Assembly: GCF_057098645.1 (NCBI RefSeq)
Contig: NZ_CM169472.1
Direction: 5' to 3' (one strand)
DNA length: 64,000 nt
Every line of letters starts with the position of its first letter. The stretch's first letter is position 1. Positions 6,844-38,202 of this stretch are shown piece after piece. The position numbers and the translations under genes were made by a program. The notes under the pieces were generated by a model that worked only from the letters and a program-made list of their open reading frames with translations, was not told the DNA's origin and searched no databases.

Positions 6844-6859
6844 TGGCATGCAATCTGCT
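6844..6859 (+). promoter_or_regulatory. candidate sigma54 (-24/-12) promoter for norVW
   Basis: TGGCATGcaatcTGCT with GG and GC at the canonical spacing, ~50 nt upstream of norV ATG. Confidence 0.55.
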
Positions 6860-12536: not shown

Positions 12537-12684
12537 CAAATTCTCCAGCAATGACAGTTAATGCGCCGATACACTCACAAATCATGCCAGTTTTTAATTC
12601 ACTGTTATTTAAGGAAATTAATTTCTGTAATGCAGGAAAAAAGATGTCATCGACACTAGTGACGATGACATGTGATGACAATGT

Positions 12685-16959: not shown

Positions 16960-17379
16960 TCAAAGAAACCATTCCGGCTTAACGCCAAATCGGGCTGAAA
17001 GTGCCTTAATGTGGGATATTGTCAGGGATCGTTGTCCAGACAAAATCTGACTGACCAGGGATTTAGAGCCGATTTCGTTCTTCAAATCCGCATAGGTCAG
17101 ATTATGTTGATCAATCAACGTGCGAAGTAACGCCACGCCAACCGGCATTGCCGCAACGGCTTTGTCGAACTCTGCAAACTTTTCGTTGTTGTTTTCATAC
17201 TCTGCAATGCGGCTCGCCAGAAAGTCGATAAGTGGATTGGTGTCATCTTCTTCAATCAAATATTCGACCAGTTCCAGTGCTTCACGATAATCATCTTCTG
17301 AGTCACTGCCTCCCAGAAAGGGGACTGCATTGACCAGTTCTCTTGTTGCTTTAACAGCGCGTGCAGCATTAGCAGTCAT
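16960..17379 (-). CDS. HigA-like antitoxin (HTH, XRE family)
   Basis: 139-aa ORF; C-terminal HTH (SKSLVSQILSGQRSLTISHIKALSARFGV); 4-nt overlap with upstream toxin ORF; toxin-first order typical of higBA. Confidence 0.75.
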   Translation of the reverse strand: MTANAARAVKATRELVNAVPFLGGSDSEDDYREALELVEYLIEEDDTNPLIDFLASRIAEYENNNEKFAEFDKAVAAMPVGVALLRTLIDQHNLTYADLKNEIGSKSLVSQILSGQRSLTISHIKALSARFGVKPEWFL

Positions 17380-17687
17380 TCTTTGTTCTCTCTGTAGTAA
17401 CGTGTCAGTTTGTCATACTCTGCGTGATTCGTTATGTGCTTCACAAAGAACCGCTTATTAACAAAGTTTATGTAGGCAATAACCCTAAGATTGTTCCCGC
17501 CGACATCCAGAACGTACCATTTGTTGCGATATTTAAAATTGTCGAGGTTGGGAAACGCCGTTCGCATTTCTTCTGGCGTAGAAAAATCCGTTTCCTTAAT
17601 AACCCGATACAATGCCTGAAGAGCCAGAGCGTCGTTAGGATATTTACGCGCAGACTCTTCAAATGGCGCTTTAGAAATGATGTGCAT
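17376..17687 (-). CDS. HigB-like toxin (RelE/ParE superfamily mRNA interferase)
   Basis: 103-aa basic ORF with DNFKY and VGGNNLRV motifs shared with HigB-type toxins; coupled to antitoxin. Confidence 0.75.
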   Translation of the reverse strand: MHIISKAPFEESARKYPNDALALQALYRVIKETDFSTPEEMRTAFPNLDNFKYRNKWYVLDVGGNNLRVIAYINFVNKRFFVKHITNHAEYDKLTRYYRENKE

Positions 17688-17848
17688 TTTTAAGTTTTAA
17701 CTTCCTTATAGTAAGTAAACAGCCACATCTGCGAGTTCTATCCTCATGTGTTCGGAAACTATAGCTCATCAAATCCAGGTTCACAATATGTAAACACTTG
17801 CGCGTGATATAATTACCCCCAAAATCCTCATAACCACTCTGCAAAAAG

Positions 17849-18622
17849 TCAGTTCTGATTCACCCCATCAAGCACATCCCCCTTTATCAAGCAACGTTGC
17901 GTCAGCGACAGATCTTCCGTTTGTGTGTCGCGCCCGGCGATGGGTTTGAGGACGAGTTTACGGTTGGGGGTATAAGTAAAACGCGTGAGCGCGGGATAGC
18001 TTAACTTGCCAAACCAGCCGTGAACACGCTGCCATTTGGCGTCTTTTACCTGATACAGACTGGTTATCCAGTAACCAGAATTAAACTGCATATCCAGCAA
18101 TTGCGTGTGACCATTGCCTTGTAAATCCAGCAAATCATCTACGCCAGTTTTGCTTGCAGTGTAGAATCCCCAGGGTTCAAAGACACAGGGACGGCCTTCG
18201 TGCGTGAACGTCATGAGGATTAAATGTGCATAGGGCGCCAGACCATTACCGGCACTTGGCAACCAGATAACCAGATCCTGAATGCCGTTACGATCCAGAT
18301 CGGCGCGATAGAGCTGCCCTTTGCCCGCCATATTTGCCAGCAACCCCACTGGCACCGTCCAGGATTTACCCGCGAGGTCTTTAGCGGTTAATTGCCAGTA
18401 ATCCTCTTCATTTGGCATCTTCTCAAGCGTCACGCCAGCAACGCCGATTTTTCTAAAATGCCAAGTTTGCTCGGTATAATAAGGCATGGTCAGGAGAGGT
18501 TTCAGCGCCCGCTTTTGCGCATATTCGCTGCCACTCATTGGCAGATATTCGGTAAAGCTGGTGGCCAGTGCAGACTGCACTAAGCTCAATAAAAAAGCGC
18601 ACATCCCTGTTCTGATGTTCAA
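17849..18622 (-). CDS. exported protein of unknown function, possible FG-GAP/VCBS-like calcium-binding loops
   Basis: 257-aa ORF with N-terminal signal peptide (MNIRTGMCAFLLSLVQSALA); motifs ADLDRNGIQDLV and LDLQGNGHTQLLD; starts 24 nt downstream of hycI stop on the same strand. Confidence 0.7.
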   Translation of the reverse strand: MNIRTGMCAFLLSLVQSALATSFTEYLPMSGSEYAQKRALKPLLTMPYYTEQTWHFRKIGVAGVTLEKMPNEEDYWQLTAKDLAGKSWTVPVGLLANMAGKGQLYRADLDRNGIQDLVIWLPSAGNGLAPYAHLILMTFTHEGRPCVFEPWGFYTASKTGVDDLLDLQGNGHTQLLDMQFNSGYWITSLYQVKDAKWQRVHGWFGKLSYPALTRFTYTPNRKLVLKPIAGRDTQTEDLSLTQRCLIKGDVLDGVNQN

Positions 18623-23485: not shown

Positions 23486-25312
23486 TCAGGCTCCTCGTGA
23501 AACAATAATCACCACCAGTACCGCCAGTTCAACCAGCGCCATCCGGCGGAACAGCAACGCACTCCCCTCGCACTGCCAGCCCGGCACCAGCGACACCGGA
23601 TTCAGCCATTTGCGCAGTTTCAGCACCGGCGCAAACGCCTGTTTCACCGGCATGGCAAAACCGTGAGCGGTAATCACCATTGATTTTTCGTGGTCGTAAC
23701 CGCACACCCAGGCCGCACCGCGGGAACGCGATGGCAAACGATCGCCTTTGCAAATCGCCATAATGATGAATGGCAGCAGCGGGCAGGCAATCAGCAGCAA
23801 CGTGATCATCGGTTGAGAAACGGTGGTGTTAGCAGGCTCCAGCGGCAGAGGTACAGCAGCAGAGAGCATCGGCAGTAGCCACGGCGCAGCAACACCGCCA
23901 ATTACGCAGCAAATCGCCAGTGCCACTACGCTTACGCTCATCAGGAGCGGTGCACAGGTGGCGTTTTCGGCTTCTTTGGTACGCGGCGCGCCGAGGAACG
24001 TGACGCCATAGACTTTCGCCATACACATCACCGCCAGCGCACCGGTAATTGCCAGACCCACAGCGAGCAGCGGCCCCAGCAGACGGGCAACAAACGCGCC
24101 ACTATTGCTCAGTTTGAAAAAGGATTGATAGATAACCCATTCCCCGGCAAACCCGTTCAGCGGCGGCAGTGCAGCCATTGCCATCAGCCCGACTAACATA
24201 GCGATGGAGATAACCGGCATTTTCTTGCCAATACCACCGAGTTTTTCGATATCGCGATGACCGGTACGGAACCAGACGCTCCCCGCCCCGAGGAACAGTA
24301 CACTTTTGAACAGGCTATGGTTAAGCAGATGGTACAGACCACCGACCAGGCCAAGAGCAATCAGCGCCGGTTGTTCGAGCGCGATACCCGTTACGCCAGC
24401 GCCCAGCCCCAGCAGGATAATGCCGATATTTTCCAGGGTGTGGTAAGCCAGTAGACGCTGGATGTTATGCTCCATCAGCGCATACAGACCACCGACGAAC
24501 GCGGTGATCATACCGAGCACCAGCAGCGCGATCCCCCACCACAGCGGTGCATTACCGCCCAGCAGTGACAGGGTTAAAATGCCCAGCAGGCCAATTTTCA
24601 TGACTACCGTAGAAAACAACACGGCAGCTGGCGCAGAGGCGTTCGCATGTGCCTGCGGCACCCAGCCGTGCAGCGGAATAATCCCGGCCAGCAGGCCAAA
24701 GCCAATCACACCGAGCAGCCAGATATCGGAACCGAGCGGCAGCTGTTGCATACGCATATCCAGCAGGCGCAGATCCAGCGTGCCGTAACGCTGCCACAGC
24801 AGCCAGCAAGCAATCGCCAGCAGCAGAGTGCCAAGACGCCCCAGCGCAAACCACAGTTTGCCCTCTTTGCTGTTGCTGGTGAGGAACACCGCACACAAGG
24901 CCATGACTTCGGCCATTACCACGAACATGCCGAGGTTGCTGGCAATGACGGCGCAGACGGCGGCAGCCATCAACATATTGATCTGCAAGCCGTTGCACTT
25001 CACCTGCGCGTGGCGATGCCAGTCAATGTTGTAGAGGCTGACAAACAGACCGCACAGACCGAGCGTAATCAGCCAAATCGCGTTAAGCGGAGAGATTTGC
25101 ACATCGTAGCTTACCAGCGACAGCGCACCGCTCACGCCAACCGCGCCAGTCAGTACTGTGAAGCCCGCTGCTGCCGTATACAGACTACCAACCGCGCCGC
25201 CAATTCCGGCTATCCAGCCGCTTAGCGCCTTTTGAAAAGAAAAGAGAAATGCCAGAACAGCGGCGGCGACAAACCACGCCACGCCGCTATTGATCAGGGA
25301 AATTGCGCTCAT
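23486..25312 (-). CDS. hycC: formate hydrogenlyase membrane subunit 3 (NuoL/MrpA-like antiporter module)
   Basis: 608-aa polytopic membrane ORF. Confidence 0.9.
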   Translation of the reverse strand: MSAISLINSGVAWFVAAAVLAFLFSFQKALSGWIAGIGGAVGSLYTAAAGFTVLTGAVGVSGALSLVSYDVQISPLNAIWLITLGLCGLFVSLYNIDWHRHAQVKCNGLQINMLMAAAVCAVIASNLGMFVVMAEVMALCAVFLTSNSKEGKLWFALGRLGTLLLAIACWLLWQRYGTLDLRLLDMRMQQLPLGSDIWLLGVIGFGLLAGIIPLHGWVPQAHANASAPAAVLFSTVVMKIGLLGILTLSLLGGNAPLWWGIALLVLGMITAFVGGLYALMEHNIQRLLAYHTLENIGIILLGLGAGVTGIALEQPALIALGLVGGLYHLLNHSLFKSVLFLGAGSVWFRTGHRDIEKLGGIGKKMPVISIAMLVGLMAMAALPPLNGFAGEWVIYQSFFKLSNSGAFVARLLGPLLAVGLAITGALAVMCMAKVYGVTFLGAPRTKEAENATCAPLLMSVSVVALAICCVIGGVAAPWLLPMLSAAVPLPLEPANTTVSQPMITLLLIACPLLPFIIMAICKGDRLPSRSRGAAWVCGYDHEKSMVITAHGFAMPVKQAFAPVLKLRKWLNPVSLVPGWQCEGSALLFRRMALVELAVLVVIIVSRGA

Positions 25313-25920
25313 TTAGCCTCTCCACTTTGAGCCTGCTGAAACAAGGTGAGATCGCCAAAGTCCGTGTTAAAGGTCAGCTCACGCTTACGTTTGCTGACGC
25401 GGGCGATATCGGTGTTATCCACCAGATGCAGGGCTTTAGTCGGGCACATCCGCACGCAGGCCGGACCTTGTTCATCAAAGCTACAAAGGTCACATTTGAC
25501 GGCGATCGCGCGAATACCTGGCACCCAGTCAAGCAATGTGCTGACACGCGCCGGAGCAGGCGGTGCCGGTGGCGCTTTCGGGGTATTGGCGTTTGCCGGA
25601 ATATCCAGCGGACGGCTGCCGGAAAATTCAATTGCGCCAAACGGGCAGGCGATGCCACACAGTTTGCAGCTTACGCACAGGCTTTCATTCAACTGCACGG
25701 CCCCATCAACGCGGGTGATGGCGTTAACCGGGCAGACCACCGCGCAGGGTGCATCTTCACAGTGGTGACAGAGCTGCGGCGCAGATTCTTTTTCATTTAG
25801 CATCACTCTCAGGCGCGGCATTGATTGCAGGCCGTGCTGGCGATGCGTCTCTGAACAGGCGGCCTCACAAGTGTGGCAGCCGATACAGAGCGTGGAGTCA
25901 GCAATTACAAAACGATTCAC
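25309..25920 (-). CDS. hycB: formate hydrogenlyase subunit 2 (4Fe-4S ferredoxin)
   Basis: 203-aa ORF with four Cys clusters (CIGCHTCEAAC, CHHCEDAPC, CVSCKLCGIACP, CDLC...CPT). Confidence 0.9.
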   Translation of the reverse strand: MNRFVIADSTLCIGCHTCEAACSETHRQHGLQSMPRLRVMLNEKESAPQLCHHCEDAPCAVVCPVNAITRVDGAVQLNESLCVSCKLCGIACPFGAIEFSGSRPLDIPANANTPKAPPAPPAPARVSTLLDWVPGIRAIAVKCDLCSFDEQGPACVRMCPTKALHLVDNTDIARVSKRKRELTFNTDFGDLTLFQQAQSGEAK

Positions 25921-26044
25921 CAGGCATTCCTCAGGTGATTGTCATTTTTGACGAAAACATGCCGATGAAATGTCATTTTCGACACTCATCGACACGCCCA
26001 TCCCCAAACAGGCGTAACGCCTGCAAAACGGGCAAAGCCTCAGC

Positions 26045-26506
26045 TCATGCTGCCGGGCTTTGTCCCTTTACCAGTTGGCTTAAATTCACCGGCACATTGT
26101 TTTCAATAGCGGTGTATAAGCTGTCGTAAACGCCAGCGATTTTTTCGAGATAGTGTTCCAGAACCTGTTCGCGATCGCGGATGTTGACCTTGCCATCAAT
26201 CATGCCGTCAATGCTCAGTTGCGCCTGCGCAATCCGCTGTTTGTCTTCGCCATCTTTTGTTTCGACGTAATACTCGATGGTGTGGCTGTTAAAGCCATCC
26301 GCCAGGGTGACGTAAATACGAAAATGTTCAAAAAGGACGAAACAGAGTTCTTTGTCCGGCGCGCAGCTCATGGCGTGATGCAGGCGCGCTTTCGATAACG
26401 TGATCCCCTGAACCAGCGAATTGCAGTAGATGTGCCACTGGTCCTGTAGGCGACGATGCCGCTGTGCGATGTAATCGGCTTTCTCGCTTATTTCCCAAAT
26501 AGTCAT
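26045..26506 (-). CDS. hycA: formate hydrogenlyase regulatory protein HycA
   Basis: 153-aa ORF, first gene of hyc operon, divergent from hypA. Confidence 0.88.
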   Translation of the reverse strand: MTIWEISEKADYIAQRHRRLQDQWHIYCNSLVQGITLSKARLHHAMSCAPDKELCFVLFEHFRIYVTLADGFNSHTIEYYVETKDGEDKQRIAQAQLSIDGMIDGKVNIRDREQVLEHYLEKIAGVYDSLYTAIENNVPVNLSQLVKGQSPAA

Positions 26507-26541
26507 TGTCAGGTTACCCGTTTAACAGAGATGCCAGCTTT

Positions 26542-26558
26542 AAGCATTTTTTGTGCCA
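26542..26558 (-). promoter_or_regulatory. candidate sigma54 promoter for hyc operon
   Basis: Minus strand reads TGGCACaaaaaaTGCTT with canonical GG/GC spacing, ~35 nt upstream of hycA start. Confidence 0.5.
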
Positions 26559-26614
26559 ACTTTTAATTCATTGTTATTAAAGCGATTTTTAAGATTTTGG
26601 TGAATTTCGTCGCC

Positions 26615-26644
26615 GTGTCGACGTGTCATTTCGACATCATCGAC
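26615..26644. promoter_or_regulatory. TCGACA repeat cluster, candidate FhlA upstream activating sequence
   Basis: TGTCGACgtGTCAtTTCGACAtcaTCGACA lying between the two divergent sigma54 promoter candidates. Confidence 0.4.
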
Positions 26645-26671
26645 ATTATTCACTGCAGGGATAATCAACAC

Positions 26672-26687
26672 TGGCACAATTATTGCT
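26672..26687 (+). promoter_or_regulatory. candidate sigma54 promoter for hyp operon
   Basis: TGGCACaattaTTGCT, near-consensus -24/-12 element ~30 nt upstream of hypA ATG. Confidence 0.6.
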
Positions 26688-26717
26688 TGTAGCTGGCAAT
26701 AGTTAATGGGAGGCGAT

Positions 26718-27068
26718 ATGCACGAAATAACCCTCTGCCAACGGGCACTGGAATTGATCGAACAGCAGGCCGCAAAACACGGCGCAAAACGCGTAACTGG
26801 GGTCTGGCTCAAAATTGGCGCATTTTCTTGTGTCGAAACCAGCTCTCTTGCCTTTTGTTTTGATCTGGTTTGCCGCGGCAGCGTGGCGGAAGGTTGTAAA
26901 CTGCACCTCGAAGAACAAGAGGCCGAATGCTGGTGTGAAACATGCCAACAGTATGTGACGCTACTGACCCAGCGCGTCCGCCGCTGTCCACAGTGTCATG
27001 GTGACATGCTACAGATTGTGGCAGACGACGGTTTACAGATTCGGCGGATAGAAATAGACCAGGAGTGA
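26718..27068 (+). CDS. hypA: hydrogenase nickel-incorporation protein HypA
   Basis: 116 aa from MHEITLCQRALEL; zinc site CETC...CPQC. Confidence 0.9.
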   Translation: MHEITLCQRALELIEQQAAKHGAKRVTGVWLKIGAFSCVETSSLAFCFDLVCRGSVAEGCKLHLEEQEAECWCETCQQYVTLLTQRVRRCPQCHGDMLQIVADDGLQIRRIEIDQE

Positions 27069-27071
27069 GCG

Positions 27072-27944
27072 ATGTGTACAACATGCGGTTGCGGTGAAGG
27101 CAACCTGTATATCGAGGGTGATGAACATAACCCTCATTCCGCGTTTCGTAGCGCGCCATTTGCCCCGGCGGCACGCCCGAAGATGAAAATCACCGGCATT
27201 AAAGCGCCTGAATTTACCCCCAGCCAGACTGAAGAAGGCGACCTGCATTACGGTCATGGCGAAGCGGGCACTCACGCACCGGGCATGAGCCAGCGTCGGA
27301 TGCTGGAAGTCGAAATTGACGTGCTGGACAAAAATAACCGTCTGGCTGAACGCAACCGCGCGCGCTTTGCTGCCCGCAAGCAACTGGTGCTCAACCTGGT
27401 TTCCAGCCCAGGTTCCGGTAAAACCACCCTGCTGACGGAAACCTTAATGCGCCTGAAAGACAGCGTTCCGTGCGCGGTTATTGAAGGTGACCAGCAAACC
27501 GTGAACGATGCCGCACGCATTCGCGCTACCGGCACACCAGCGATTCAGGTGAACACCGGTAAAGGCTGCCATCTTGACGCACAGATGATTGCCGACGCCG
27601 CACCGCGTCTGCCACTGGACGATAACGGTATTCTGTTTATCGAAAACGTTGGCAACCTGGTATGCCCGGCCAGCTTCGATCTCGGTGAAAAACACAAAGT
27701 GGCGGTGCTTTCCGTTACCGAAGGTGAAGACAAACCGCTGAAATATCCGCATATGTTTGCCGCCGCCTCGCTAATGCTGCTCAACAAAGTTGACCTGCTG
27801 CCGTATCTTAACTTTGACGTTGAGAAGTGCATCGCCTGCGCCCGCGAAGTCAATCCAGAAATTGAAATCATCCTTATTTCCGCCACCAGCGGCGAAGGGA
27901 TGGACCAGTGGCTGAACTGGCTGGAGACACAGCGATGTGCATAG
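27072..27944 (+). CDS. hypB: hydrogenase nickel-incorporation GTPase HypB
   Basis: 290-aa ORF; N-terminal CTTCGC metal motif, His-rich stretch, P-loop [15 protein letters not shown]. Confidence 0.93.
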
Positions 27945-28207
27945 GCGTTCCCGGCCAGATCCGCACCATTGACGGCAACCAGGCGAAAGTCGACGTCTGC
28001 GGCATTCAGCGCGATGTCGATTTAACGTTAGTCGGCAGCTGCGATGAAAACGGTCAGCCGCGCGTGGGCCAGTGGGTACTGGTACACGTTGGCTTTGCCA
28101 TGAGCGTAATTAATGAAGCCGAAGCACGCGACACTCTCGACGCCTTACAAAACATGTTTGATGTTGAGCCGGATGTCGGCGCGCTGTTGTATGGCGAGGA
28201 AAAATAA
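27935..28207 (+). CDS. hypC: hydrogenase maturation factor HypC
   Basis: 90 aa from conserved N-terminal MCIGVPGQI; track ORF starts 27 nt upstream. Confidence 0.9.
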
Positions 28208-29328
28208 TGCGTTTTGTTGATGAATATCGCGCGCCGGAACAGGTGATGCAGTTAATTGAGCATCTGCGCGAACGTGCTTCACATCTCTCTTACACCGCCG
28301 AACGCCCTCTGCGGATTATGGAAGTGTGCGGTGGTCATACCCACGCCATTTTTAAATTCGGCCTCGACCAGTTACTGCCGGAAAACGTTGAGTTTATCCA
28401 CGGTCCGGGTTGCCCGGTGTGCGTACTGCCGATGGGTAGAATCGACACCTGCGTGGAGATTGCCAGCCATCCGGAAGTCATCTTCTGTACCTTTGGCGAC
28501 GCCATGCGCGTGCCGGGGAAACAGGGATCGCTGTTGCAGGCAAAAGCACGCGGTGCCGATGTGCGCATCGTTTACTCGCCGATGGATGCGTTGAAACTGG
28601 CGCAGGAGAATCCAACCCGCAAAGTGGTGTTCTTCGGCTTAGGTTTTGAAACCACCATGCCGACCACCGCTATCACTCTGCAACAGGCGAAAGCGCGTGA
28701 TGTGCAGAATTTTTACTTCTTCTGCCAGCACATTACGCTTATCCCGACGCTGCGCAGTTTGCTGGAACAGCCGGATAACGGTATCGACGCGTTCCTCGCG
28801 CCGGGCCACGTTAGTATGGTTATCGGCACTGATGCCTATAATTTTATCGCCAGCGATTTTCATCGTCCGCTGGTGGTCGCTGGTTTCGAACCCCTTGATC
28901 TACTGCAAGGCGTGGTCATGCTGGTGGAGCAGAAAATAGCGGCCCATAGCAAGGTAGAGAATCAGTATCGTCGGGTGGTGCCGGATGCCGGTAACCTGCT
29001 GGCGCAACAGGCGATTGCCGATGTGTTCTGTGTCAACGGCGACAGCGAATGGCGCGGCTTAGGCGTGATTGAATCTTCTGGCGTGCACCTGACGCCGGAT
29101 TATCAACGATTCGATGCCGAAGCACATTTCCGCCCGGCACCGCAGCAGGTCTGCGATGACCCGCGTGCGCGTTGTGGTGAAGTATTAACGGGCAAATGTA
29201 AGCCGCATCAATGCCCGCTGTTTGGTAACACCTGTAATCCTCAAACCGCGTTTGGTGCGCTGATGGTTTCCTCCGAAGGAGCGTGCGCCGCGTGGTATCA
29301 GTATCGTCAGCAGGAGAGTGAAGCGTGA
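28207..29328 (+). CDS. hypD: hydrogenase maturation factor HypD
   Basis: 373-aa ORF; conserved motifs CGGHTH, GPGCPVC, FEPLD, CxxxC C-terminal. Confidence 0.92.
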   Translation: MRFVDEYRAPEQVMQLIEHLRERASHLSYTAERPLRIMEVCGGHTHAIFKFGLDQLLPENVEFIHGPGCPVCVLPMGRIDTCVEIASHPEVIFCTFGDAMRVPGKQGSLLQAKARGADVRIVYSPMDALKLAQENPTRKVVFFGLGFETTMPTTAITLQQAKARDVQNFYFFCQHITLIPTLRSLLEQPDNGIDAFLAPGHVSMVIGTDAYNFIASDFHRPLVVAGFEPLDLLQGVVMLVEQKIAAHSKVENQYRRVVPDAGNLLAQQAIADVFCVNGDSEWRGLGVIESSGVHLTPDYQRFDAEAHFRPAPQQVCDDPRARCGEVLTGKCKPHQCPLFGNTCNPQTAFGALMVSSEGACAAWYQYRQQESEA

Positions 29329-30408: not shown

Positions 30409-32487
30409 ATGTCATATACACCGATGAGTGATCTCGGACAGCAAGGGTTGTTCGACATCACTCGGACACTATTGCAGCAGCCCGATCTGGCCTCGCTGTG
30501 TGAGGCTCTTTCGCAACTGGTAAAGCGTTCTGCGCTCGCCGACAACGCGGCTATTGTGTTGTGGCAAGCGCAGACTCAACGTGCGTCTTATTACGCATCG
30601 CGTGAAAAAGACACCCCCATTAAATATGAAGACGAAACTGTTCTGGCACACGGTCCGGTACGCAGCATTTTGTCGCGCCCTGATACGCTGCATTGCAGTT
30701 ACGAAGAATTTTGTGAAACCTGGCCGCAGCTGGCCGCAGGTGGGCTATACCCAAAATTTGGTCACTATTGCCTGATGCCACTGGCGGCGGAAGGGCATAT
30801 TTTTGGTGGCTGTGAATTTATTCGTTATGACGATCGCCCCTGGAGCGAAAAAGAGTTCAATCGTCTGCAAACATTTACGCAGATCGTTTCTGTCGTCACC
30901 GAACAAATCCAGAGTCGCGTCGTTAACAATGTCGACTATGAGTTGTTATGCCGGGAACGCGATAACTTCCGCATCCTGGTCGCCATCACCAACGCGGTGC
31001 TTTCCCGCCTGGATATGGACGAACTGGTCAGCGAAGTCGCCAAAGAAATCCATTACTATTTCGATATTGACGATATCAGTATCGTCTTACGCAGCCACCG
31101 TAAAAACAAACTCAACATCTACTCCACTCACTATCTTGATAAACAGCATCCCGCCCACGAACAGAGCGAAGTCGATGAAGCCGGAACCCTCACCGAACGC
31201 GTGTTCAAAAGTAAAGAGATGCTGCTGATTAATCTCCACGAGCGGGATGATTTAGCCCCCTATGAACGCATGTTGTTCGATACCTGGGGCAACCAGATTC
31301 AAACCTTGTGCCTGTTACCGCTGATGTCTGGCGACACCATGCTGGGCGTGCTGAAACTGGCGCAATGTGAAGAGAAAGTGTTTACCACTACCAATCTGAA
31401 TTTACTGCGCCAGATTGCCGAACGTGTGGCAATCGCTGTCGATAACGCCCTCGCCTATCAGGAAATCCATCGTCTGAAAGAACGGCTGGTTGATGAAAAC
31501 CTCGCCCTGACCGAGCAGCTCAACAATGTTGATAGTGAATTTGGCGAGATTATTGGCCGCAGCGAAGCCATGTACAGCGTGCTTAAACAAGTTGAAATGG
31601 TAGCGCAAAGTGACAGTACCGTGCTGATCCTCGGTGAAACTGGCACGGGTAAAGAGCTGATTGCCCGTGCTATCCATAATCTCAGTGGGCGTAATAATCG
31701 CCGCATGGTCAAAATGAACTGCGCGGCGATGCCTGCCGGATTGCTGGAGAGCGATCTGTTTGGTCATGAGCGTGGAGCTTTTACCGGTGCCAGCGCCCAG
31801 CGTATCGGTCGTTTTGAACTGGCGGATAAAAGCTCCCTGTTCCTCGACGAAGTGGGCGATATGCCACTGGAGTTACAGCCGAAGTTGCTGCGTGTATTGC
31901 AGGAACAGGAGTTTGAACGCCTCGGCAGCAACAAAATCATTCAGACGGACGTGCGTCTAATCGCCGCGACTAACCGCGATCTGAAAAAAATGGTCGCCGA
32001 CCGTGAGTTCCGTAGCGATCTCTATTACCGCCTGAACGTATTCCCGATTCACCTTCCGCCACTACGCGAGCGTCCGGAAGATATTCCGCTGCTGGCGAAA
32101 GCCTTTACCTTCAAAATTGCCCGTCGTCTGGGGCGCAATATCGACAGCATTCCTGCCGAGACGTTGCGCACCTTGAGCAATATGGAGTGGCCGGGTAACG
32201 TACGCGAACTGGAAAACGTCATTGAGCGCGCGGTATTGCTAACACGCGGCAACGTGCTGCAGTTGTCATTGCCAGATATTGCTTTACCGGAGCCTGAAAC
32301 GCCGCCTGCCGCAACGGTTGTCGCTCAGGAGGGCGAAGATGAATATCAGTTGATTGTTCGCGTGCTGAAAGAAACTAACGGTGTGGTTGCCGGGCCTAAA
32401 GGCGCTGCGCAACGTCTGGGGCTGAAACGCACGACTCTGCTGTCACGGATGAAGCGACTGGGAATTGATAAATCGGCATTGATTTAA
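30409..32487 (+). CDS. fhlA: formate hydrogenlyase transcriptional activator (sigma54-dependent)
   Basis: 692 aa from MSYTPMSDLGQQ; tandem GAF region, AAA+ [15 protein letters not shown]-terminal HTH. Confidence 0.93.
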   Translation: MSYTPMSDLGQQGLFDITRTLLQQPDLASLCEALSQLVKRSALADNAAIVLWQAQTQRASYYASREKDTPIKYEDETVLAHGPVRSILSRPDTLHCSYEEFCETWPQLAAGGLYPKFGHYCLMPLAAEGHIFGGCEFIRYDDRPWSEKEFNRLQTFTQIVSVVTEQIQSRVVNNVDYELLCRERDNFRILVAITNAVLSRLDMDELVSEVAKEIHYYFDIDDISIVLRSHRKNKLNIYSTHYLDKQHPAHEQSEVDEAGTLTERVFKSKEMLLINLHERDDLAPYERMLFDTWGNQIQTLCLLPLMSGDTMLGVLKLAQCEEKVFTTTNLNLLRQIAERVAIAVDNALAYQEIHRLKERLVDENLALTEQLNNVDSEFGEIIGRSEAMYSVLKQVEMVAQSDSTVLILGETGTGKELIARAIHNLSGRNNRRMVKMNCAAMPAGLLESDLFGHERGAFTGASAQRIGRFELADKSSLFLDEVGDMPLELQPKLLRVLQEQEFERLGSNKIIQTDVRLIAATNRDLKKMVADREFRSDLYYRLNVFPIHLPPLRERPEDIPLLAKAFTFKIARRLGRNIDSIPAETLRTLSNMEWPGNVRELENVIERAVLLTRGNVLQLSLPDIALPEPETPPAATVVAQEGEDEYQLIVRVLKETNGVVAGPKGAAQRLGLKRTTLLSRMKRLGIDKSALI

Positions 32488-36774: not shown

Positions 36775-38202
36775 TTATTTACGTACGGCCAGCATAGCGG
36801 TCAGTTTTTCAGCCCAGGCTTTGGTTTCCGGCAAATCCACCACCGGCTGGCTGTAGTGACCACGGTTGTCCGGGGCGACAGGCGTGGTGGCGTCGATAAT
36901 CAGCTTGTCGGTGATCCCCGCCGGGCTTGAGCCAGGGTCGAGTTCCAGCACGGACATATTCGGCAACTGCACCAAATCCCCTGCCGGATTTACTTTCGAG
37001 GAGAGCGCCCACATCACCTGCGGCAGGTTGAACGGGTCAACGTCTTCATCGACCATAATCACCATCTTTACGTAGCCCAGACCGTGCGGCGTGGTCATCG
37101 CACGCAGGCCCACCGCGCGGGCAAAGCCGCCGTAGCGTTTTTTGGTGGAGATAATCGCCAGCAGGCCGTGGGTGTACATGGCGTTTACCGCCTGCACTTC
37201 CGGGAACTCGGCTTTCAGTTGTTGATACAGCGGTACGCAGGTGGCTGGCCCCATCAGGTAGTCGATTTCGGTCCACGGCATGCCGAGGTACAGCGATTCG
37301 AAAATCGGCCTGGTGCGGTAAGAGACTTTATCGATGCGCACCACGGTCATGTTACGCCCGCCGGAGTAGTGTCCGGTAAACTCACCGAACGGCCCTTCGA
37401 TTTCGCGTTTACGGCTTTCGATGACCCCTTCGAGGATCACTTCTGAACCCCACGGCACATCAAAACCGGTCAGCGGGGCGGTGGCGATCGGGTACGGGCT
37501 TTCACGCAGCGCGCCTGCCATTTCATACTCAGACTGATCGTATTTCAGCGGCGTGGCCCCCATCAGCGTGATGATCGGATCGTTACCGAGCGTGATCGCA
37601 ATCGGCAGATCTTCACCGCGCTCTTCTGCTTTATGCAGATGCAGGGCGATATCGTGCATCGGTACCGGTTGCAGGCCAAGCTTACGCTTGCCCTTCACTT
37701 CCATGCGGTAGATGCCGACGTTCTGCTTGCCGAAGTTATCTGGGTCGAGCGGATCGCGGGAAACCACGCAGGCTTTGTCGAGATAGAAACCGCCATCGCC
37801 ATCATTTAAACGAAACAGCGGCAGGATATCGAACAGATTAATCTCGTCACCATCGACGGTGTTCTGCGCCCAGGCAGGATTGGCGCGGCGCTCCGGGACA
37901 ATCGGGAAGTTATCCCAGCGGCGGATAAACTCATCAATCTGTTTTTTAACCGGCGTGTTTGGCGGCAGGCCGAGGGAAATCGCGTGGTTCTGCCAGGAAC
38001 CGATGGTATTCATCGCCACGCGGGCATCGGTAAAGCCGCGAATATTATCAAACCACAGCGCGGGCGCGCCGTCGCCGATACGCCCGGTGGCGTTAGCTGC
38101 TGCTGCCAGATCCGGCTCAGCGTTCATTTCTTCGCTGATTTTCAGTAACTGGCCGTGGTCATCAAGCGCCTGTAAAAAGCTGCGTAAATCATCAAATGCC
38201 AT
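36775..38202 (-). CDS. UbiD-family (prFMN-dependent) decarboxylase, EcdC/BsdC-like
   Basis: 475-aa ORF with UbiD-family architecture; 1-nt overlap with the upstream UbiX-like gene. Confidence 0.88.
   Translation of the reverse strand: MAFDDLRSFLQALDDHGQLLKISEEMNAEPDLAAAANATGRIGDGAPALWFDNIRGFTDARVAMNTIGSWQNHAISLGLPPNTPVKKQIDEFIRRWDNFPIVPERRANPAWAQNTVDGDEINLFDILPLFRLNDGDGGFYLDKACVVSRDPLDPDNFGKQNVGIYRMEVKGKRKLGLQPVPMHDIALHLHKAEERGEDLPIAITLGNDPIITLMGATPLKYDQSEYEMAGALRESPYPIATAPLTGFDVPWGSEVILEGVIESRKREIEGPFGEFTGHYSGGRNMTVVRIDKVSYRTRPIFESLYLGMPWTEIDYLMGPATCVPLYQQLKAEFPEVQAVNAMYTHGLLAIISTKKRYGGFARAVGLRAMTTPHGLGYVKMVIMVDEDVDPFNLPQVMWALSSKVNPAGDLVQLPNMSVLELDPGSSPAGITDKLIIDATTPVAPDNRGHYSQPVVDLPETKAWAEKLTAMLAVRK

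Follow-up and report, generated by a model that had tools for sequence, protein, structure and literature searches.

Which of the elements in and around the short spacer between hycA and hypA serve which of the two divergent sigma-54 promoters that lie in it? The stretch of DNA analysed here (64,000 nucleotides of contig NZ_CM169472.1 from RefSeq assembly GCF_057098645.1; hereafter 'the window') is core E. coli chromosome, and its annotated gene order is hydN, ascGFB and hycIHGFEDCBA, followed by the divergent hypABCDE-fhlA cluster. The segment flagged in a first-pass annotation made from the sequence (26507-26717) is exactly the 211-bp spacer from the hycA start (26506, minus strand) to the hypA start (26718, plus strand), and the surrounding 1.1 kb match O145 strains with 100% identity and occur in 5425 of 5426 complete genomes of E. 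coli. Between the starts of hycB and hypA, nine positions differ from K-12 MG1655: seven in the AT-rich stretch between an IHF-like box and the repeat cluster UAS1, one between UAS1 and the hyp promoter (26654) and one in hycA. None falls in the promoters or repeat clusters, so that published K-12 results transfer directly to P_hyc, P_hyp, UAS1 and UAS2, which are base-for-base identical (Table 1). The region is the hyc-hyp control region of E. coli K-12 and not merely one like it: the locus and the elements are the same, with strain-level substitutions only. The promoters and the cluster are accordingly nothing new. The divergent sigma-54 promoters of hyc-hyp and the FhlA sites have been known since their characterisation in the years from 1990 to 2000 and can be found in standard E. 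coli regulatory databases; the NtrA promoters and FhlA sites of K-12 are reportedly treated in the work of Lutz et al. in 1990, Schlensog et al. and Hopper et al. in 1994, and Leonhartsberger et al. in 2000. Our comparison draws on about 20 enterobacterial genera, represented by 80 hycA loci (81 distinct spacers or sequences), and, separately, on a 19-genus alignment; the hypA / hycA / hycB arrangement is kept in all 80 fetched loci.

Table 1. Features of the hyc-hyp control region and of related loci in the window, with the equivalent positions in K-12 MG1655 (NC_000913.3) for the four principal elements.
Feature	Position	Strand	Position in NC_000913.3	Sequence and remarks
P_hyc, sigma-54 promoter (-24/-12)	26542-26558	-	2,850,471-2,850,487	TGGCACAAAAAATGCTT; serves hycABCDEFGHI; predicted start site near 26532
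P_hyp, sigma-54 promoter (-24/-12)	26672-26687	+	2,850,601-2,850,616	TGGCACAATTATTGCT; serves hypABCDE-fhlA; predicted start site near 26698
UAS1, predicted FhlA-type activating sequence	26616-26645	.	2,850,545-2,850,574	TGTCGACGTGTCATTTCGACATCATCGACA; in hyc orientation TGTCGATGATGTCGAAATGACACGTCGACA
IHF-like box	26564-26576	-		TAACAATGAATTA, one mismatch to WATCAANNNNTTR; in AT-rich stretch between UAS1 and P_hyc
Conserved hycA 5' leader	26508-26535	-		CTCTGTTAAACGGGTAACCTGAC; between predicted start site and hycA ATG
UAS2, FhlA-type module	25940-25995	.	2,849,869-2,849,924	hycA-hycB spacer; two sub-sites 31 bp apart
UAS2 sub-site	25940-25953	-		CGTCAAAAATGACA
UAS2 sub-site	25971-25995	-		TGTCGATGAGTGTCGAAAATGACA; in hyc orientation GTGTCGATGAGTGTCGAAAATGACA; near-duplicate of UAS1
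hydN-hypF promoter region	12575-12680	-		cluster 12645-12680; IHF-like box TAACAGTGAATTA at 12595-12607; TGGCATGATTTGTGA at 12575-12589
hycA	26045-26506	-		first gene of hyc operon; anti-activator of FhlA; lies between UAS1 and UAS2; Pfam HycA_repressor, E = 1.3e-90; RefSeq annotation
hypA	26718-27068	+		ATG at 26718; Pfam HypA, E = 7.6e-31; RefSeq annotation; heads hypABCDE-fhlA
fhlA	30409-32487	+		692 aa; directly 3' of hypE on the same strand; cognate enhancer-binding protein

The first-pass annotation had proposed a minus-strand sigma-54 promoter facing hycA and a plus-strand one facing hypA, and both are borne out by their sequence, by an exact 17-mer bound in ChIP-seq and by their occurrence in 80 of 80 loci. 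The GG-to-GC gap, within a TGGCAC-N5-TTGCW-like motif, is exactly 10 nt in P_hyc (TGGCACAAAAAATGCT) as well as in P_hyp (TGGCACAATTATTGCT), and the 'N6-TGCTT' in which the former had been written is thus an alternative notation of the canonical -24/-12 spacing. Searching the 64 kb for TGGCAC-N6-TGCT yields two matches, namely P_hyc and P_hyp, where 0.17 are expected (2 of 100 shuffles reach two), and each motif faces its gene, with leaders of about 26 nt for hycA and about 20 nt for hypA. In a published ChIP-seq study of E. coli sigma-54, the exact 17-mers TTGGCACAAAAAATGCT (hycA, 26 nt from the gene) and CTGGCACAATTATTGCT (hypA, 20 nt from the gene) are bound; they constitute entries OS27 and OS28, are marked as previously confirmed, and hypA is described there as activated by FhlA and formate. 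Genomic SELEX likewise placed a peak of the sigma-54 holoenzyme within the hycA/hypA spacer (PMC8743547), and a Salmonella ChIP-chip study found the equivalent promoter pair, citing Lutz 1990 for 'divergent NtrA-dependent promoters'. Exactly one sigma-54 motif per direction is present in all 80 loci from the approximately 20 genera, and in the 19-genus alignment the TGGCA and TGCT columns of P_hyc are invariant, P_hyp likewise having invariant columns.

Two further observations concern sigma-54-type sequences at this locus. The two promoters (26532-26558 and 26672-26698) are related to each other as an imperfect inverted repeat of 27 nt with 81% complementarity, which runs past the -12 element to a common AGCTGGCA near the start sites; this extension beyond the -12 element is poorly kept outside Escherichia. 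Moreover, a sigma-54-like motif lies within hycA itself (26423-26437, minus strand, in the orientation of hycA; TGGCACATCTACTGC), where it covers hycA codons W24-H-I-Y-C28. We take it to be a coding by-product, because it tracks the W-H-x-Y-C codons and is kept in just 37 of 81 sequences; in relatives, Arg or Gln frequently replaces His25, and Cys is encoded by either TGC or TGT. The motif is absent from the main-text list of the sigma-54 ChIP-seq paper.

Between the two promoters, a cluster of TCGACA repeats had been noted at 26615-26644 and proposed as an activating sequence for FhlA common to both. The coordinates require a shift by one, the string TGTCGACGTGTCATTTCGACATCATCGACA being located at 26616-26645, and a degenerate extra copy, GACGAAAT, stretches the cluster, here named UAS1, to about 26603. 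Three copies of TCGACA are indeed present, but the conserved unit is a different one: the alignments show an invariant core GACGAAATGACA within overlapping units of the form TG(T/A)C-N5-6-G(A/T)CA, and TCGACA was rejected as the repeat unit. The assignment to FhlA itself stands, being backed by the second-best match in the window to an FhlA matrix and by bases that are invariant across about 20 genera. The matrix was derived from 13 characterised sites and has the consensus TG(T/A)C-RAWRAT-G(A/T)CA (PMC7658346, Table 2). When about 128,000 positions were scanned with it, the second-best match (26632-26645, inside UAS1) scored 15.58, a value that is partly circular in that the training sites very probably include UAS1 and UAS2 themselves. 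For this reason we relied on phylogenetic footprinting.

The 81 spacers are conserved only in discrete blocks, the DNA between these being near random: (i) the ribosome-binding site of hypA, (ii) P_hyp, (iii) 26616-26645, (iv) an A/T-rich box by P_hyc, (v) P_hyc, and (vi) the hycA leader. The invariant bases of the spacer are confined to both promoters, UAS1 and a few positions of the IHF-like box beside P_hyc. Within UAS1, the invariant columns of the 19-genus alignment are at 26620-26645, and its core GWCGARATGACA is present in 72 of 81 sequences. In Klebsiella and Raoultella, UAS1 is rearranged to an inverted pair, TGTCGATGACA ... TGTCATCGACATGTC, which is without the common core GACGAAATGACA; in the loci with this rearranged form (L034, L037, L041, L056, L060, L061, L067 and L081) the distance between the promoters is still 113-114 nt. 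Taken as a reading of sequence and conservation, UAS1 is a predicted FhlA-binding enhancer.

It is this conservation together with the FhlA matrix match, and not the number of repeats, that makes UAS1 convincing. Three TCGACA in 30 bp are matched in 8 of 300 dinucleotide shuffles, and are therefore only moderately unusual when considered alone. One might then argue that the cluster is a product of chance, or a structural feature such as a palindrome, a hairpin or the -35 element of a sigma-70 promoter, and no enhancer at all; TCGACA is enriched window-wide, and a generic scan reports a hairpin resembling a terminator at 26608-26623 as well as a weak sigma-70-like site with TCGACA as its -35. 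However, the counts of generic sigma-70 promoter and terminator matches are at shuffle level, the hycA-hycB spacer contains a near-duplicate of the cluster, related clusters precede the sigma-54 promoters of hydN and fdhF, and bases that stay invariant in about 20 genera while their flanks drift effectively refute the proposal, which we regard as scarcely credible. A scan of 24000-29000 against Rfam gave nothing credible, its sole match being a miRNA model (E = 0.54). The excess of TCGACA is seen on both strands of the window (51 occurrences against 29.7 expected, with none of 100 shuffles reaching 51) and is probably a codon or dipeptide effect.

Alternatively, the cluster might be the site of a regulator other than FhlA, the candidates from the literature being ModE-molybdate, NsrR and FNR. 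The literature does mention an influence of ModE and FNR on hyc/hyp, and one FNR-like match (two mismatches) is located at 26567-26580, where it overlaps the AT-rich region. That match is weak and falls outside the cluster, whose motif fits the FhlA matrix and not TTGAT-N4-ATCAA and whose clustered form occurs, among the regions examined, only beside FhlA-dependent promoters; we hence consider another regulator to be highly improbable. The search for FNR-type sites found none that is convincing in the spacer and none at up to two mismatches inside hypA.

On the hyc side, UAS1 and the promoter are separated by an AT-rich stretch that contains the IHF-like box, 5 nt upstream of the TGGCA of P_hyc. 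The support for this box comes from conservation, a single-sequence match being uninformative: the IHF consensus finds 60 matches in the window against 51 expected, so that the E. coli match taken alone is not significant, whereas a box with at most one mismatch at a fixed offset of 4-6 nt is found in 56 of 81 sequences (7 of 81 in the opposite-strand control). Downstream of the promoter, the hycA leader displays a high column identity both in the 81 sequences and in the 19 genera, and this exceeds what a ribosome-binding site alone would need.

A second module of the FhlA type, UAS2, which the first-pass annotation had overlooked, was detected as a direct repeat in the hycA-hycB spacer (124 bp). 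The best FhlA matrix match of the entire window is located here (25971-25984; 16.66 of a maximum of 16.75, the matrix being partly circular as stated), and UAS2 is better conserved than UAS1 among the 81 sequences: its proximal site is present in every one of them, with the 16-mer TTTCGTCAAAAATGAC exact in 77. In 68 sequences it precedes the start codon of hycB by 20 nt, and the gap between its sub-sites measures 30-31 nt in 60 sequences and is about one helical turn shorter in 20. A scan for sigma-54 motifs found none in the hycA-hycB spacer, the nearest being the non-conserved intragenic match in hycA about 430 bp away; UAS2 must therefore work from a distance, its target being P_hyp, P_hyc or both. 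Work by Lutz in 1990 and Schlensog in 1994 and later reviews from the Böck laboratory are said to have mapped the hyp enhancer to the hycA-hycB spacer, and UAS2 is probably that published enhancer. A strain-engineering preprint describes lower expression after replacement of hycA by an fdhF::hycB fusion, which is suggestive with respect to UAS2; we set it aside as far too confounded.

The neighbouring stretch around the hycA stop (25996-26074) contains, in Escherichia, inverted repeats (26021-26039 / 26056-26074, 79% complementary) and, near the stop codon, a small CAGGCG-TTA-CGCCTG palindrome. The stretch is missing from several other genera, Enterobacter and Klebsiella among them, in which the hycA-hycB spacer is much shorter. 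Placed between hycA and hycB, the repeats and the palindrome could serve as a partial terminator or as an RNA-stability element.

With two enhancer modules and two promoters, the question becomes one of distance. By implication, the ChIP-seq table places the start sites at about 26532 (hyc) and about 26698 (hyp); counted from these, UAS1 occupies about -84 to -113 with respect to hyc and about -53 to -82 with respect to hyp; it is thus within the canonical range of about 80-120 bp upstream for the former and outside that range for the latter, while UAS2 is at about -700 from hyp. Measured to the promoter elements, UAS1 ends 57 nt from the TGGCA of P_hyc and 26 nt from the -24 element of P_hyp. 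Across the sequences compared, the UAS1 core is 43, 54-57 or 64-66 nt away from P_hyc, with indels in steps of about 11 bp, and the two promoters are 91, 101-102 or 113-115 nt apart in every locus but one, where the value is 111. Such a stepwise spacing fits looping that depends on the face of the helix. In our assessment, the region is very probably a formate-regulon control region in which UAS1 serves P_hyc and UAS2 is most likely the main enhancer of P_hyp. The partial circularity of the matrix scores, the mismatch in the IHF-like box, the rearranged UAS1 of Klebsiella and Raoultella and a length conservation on the hyp side (described below) weigh against this reading. The pairing rests partly on what Lutz (1990), Schlensog (1994) and Hopper (1994) reportedly found; a full-text literature search, with the primary footprint papers outside its scope, found no statement that assigns each enhancer to a promoter.

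The arrangement that the first-pass annotation had in mind is a different one, in which UAS1 is a single bidirectional enhancer: FhlA at 26616-26645 would activate both promoters, and UAS2 would be auxiliary or serve something else. UAS1 does lie between the two promoters, and its distance to P_hyp is conserved in length (34-36 nt from the core in 57 sequences, and one helical turn more, 46-47 nt, in 14) despite an intervening sequence that is not conserved, as would be expected if UAS1 also mattered for P_hyp, which tells against a clean division of labour between the two modules; likewise, the length classes of the inter-promoter distance preserve the helical phase of all three elements. There is also a precedent in E. 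coli, where the divergent, back-to-back sigma-54 promoters of zraP-zraSR share the ZraR sites between them. That system has the very architecture proposed in the first-pass annotation and differs in activator and motif; unlike zraP-zraSR, however, hyc-hyp possesses a second, remote enhancer (UAS2), and its central cluster is placed asymmetrically. Several points speak against a bidirectional UAS1: (i) a position of only about -53 to -82 from the hyp start leaves no space for the DNA to bend, and that side is without an IHF-like box; (ii) the other FhlA promoters compared have their cluster 50-57 nt from TGGCA; (iii) the universally conserved UAS2 would be left without a target; and (iv) the primary literature reportedly puts the hyp enhancer in the hycA-hycB spacer. 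We thus consider it unlikely, though not far-fetched, that UAS1 alone drives both promoters. Since the canonical distance and the IHF-like box exist for hyc only, and the -24 element of P_hyp is just 26 nt away, a role of UAS1 at P_hyp is probably secondary at most and its being 'shared' unproven.

It is tempting to speculate further that UAS1 and UAS2 form a cooperating pair of enhancers bracketing hycA, the gene of the FhlA antagonist, with FhlA oligomers bridging the approximately 650 bp and one looped complex feeding both promoters. UAS1 would then be genuinely shared, and the geometry of a single nucleoprotein assembly would explain why the spacing in about 20 genera varies by helical turns. 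We deem such a bridged pair a distinctly doubtful proposition.

Returning to the pairing of UAS1 with P_hyc and of UAS2 with P_hyp, the following sequence of events may be envisaged. RNA polymerase containing sigma-54 would be held in closed complexes on both promoters, as the ChIP-seq data in the literature and the motifs suggest, and FhlA, encoded at the end of the hyp cluster, is predicted from motif and conservation to bind UAS1. The product of fhlA, named formate hydrogenlyase transcriptional activator in RefSeq, contains GAF, Sigma54_activat and AAA lid domains according to Pfam, with HTH_8 scoring just under its curated cutoff (21 versus 22 bits). IHF may bend the AT-rich DNA at about 26564-26576 such that FhlA at UAS1 contacts P_hyc, a step suggested by the conserved box. 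ATP hydrolysis by formate-activated FhlA would then open P_hyc and allow hycABCDEFGHI to be transcribed; ATP-driven promoter opening is established for enhancer-binding proteins, and its support here is the domain content of FhlA. According to the literature, P_hyp is FhlA- and formate-dependent as well, and its main enhancer is most likely UAS2, which from about 700 bp upstream would act by long-range looping. Two feedback loops may be superimposed on this scheme: read-through along hypABCDE-fhlA would provide positive autoregulation (the gene order is observed, the function comes from annotation and literature), and HycA, again according to annotation and literature, would antagonise FhlA.

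The layout found at P_hyc recurs within the window at hydN, which shares with P_hyc the succession of a TGTC/GACA cluster, about 55 nt, an IHF-like box (TAACAGTGAATTA), 5 nt and TGGCA (TGGCAT in hydN), and whose promoter is also among the E. coli sigma-54 ChIP-seq sites. In contrast to hyc-hyp, hydN has a single promoter with no divergent partner and a weaker -12 element (TGTGA); its cluster is composed of units of the TGTCGATGACA type, as is UAS1 in its Klebsiella form. At K-12 fdhF (locus L082), CGTCAAAACTGACG and repeated TTTCGTCA units resemble the proximal sub-site of UAS2, and about 50 nt separate the end of the cluster from TGGCAT. Unlike hyc-hyp, fdhF is located elsewhere on the chromosome, is monodirectional and by inspection shows no obvious IHF-like box at the 5-nt offset. 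The FhlA motif type is hence found at hydN and fdhF too, and in a weaker, less clear form at hyfA.

What the present analysis adds is comparative and modest, namely that about 20 enterobacterial genera have kept the two promoters together with the two FhlA modules. This universal retention, the spacers quantised in 11-bp steps, the common layout of hyc and hydN and the rearranged form in Klebsiella are tidy but incremental results. Nonetheless, the spacer steps of about 11 bp illustrate cleanly, by a natural example, how the face of the helix constrains enhancer-dependent transcription, and the elements of Table 1 provide precise targets for the re-engineering of formate-inducible hydrogen production.

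Finally, three observations were made elsewhere in the window. A sigma-54-type motif on the plus strand at 6844-6858 (TGGCATGCAATCTGC) resembles the norV promoter of the ChIP-seq table (CTGGCACGCAATCTGCA) and, judged from its sequence, presumably lies in the norR-norV spacer. Between ascB and hycI, this strain carries genes for a HigB-family toxin, an HTH antitoxin-like protein and a hypothetical protein (about 16960-18604; L001 4961-6605). At about 36775-38202 (L001 24776-26203) there is a gene for subunit C of a non-oxidative hydroxyarylic acid decarboxylase, which the annotation of the matching O145 genome marks as a pseudogene containing an internal stop.
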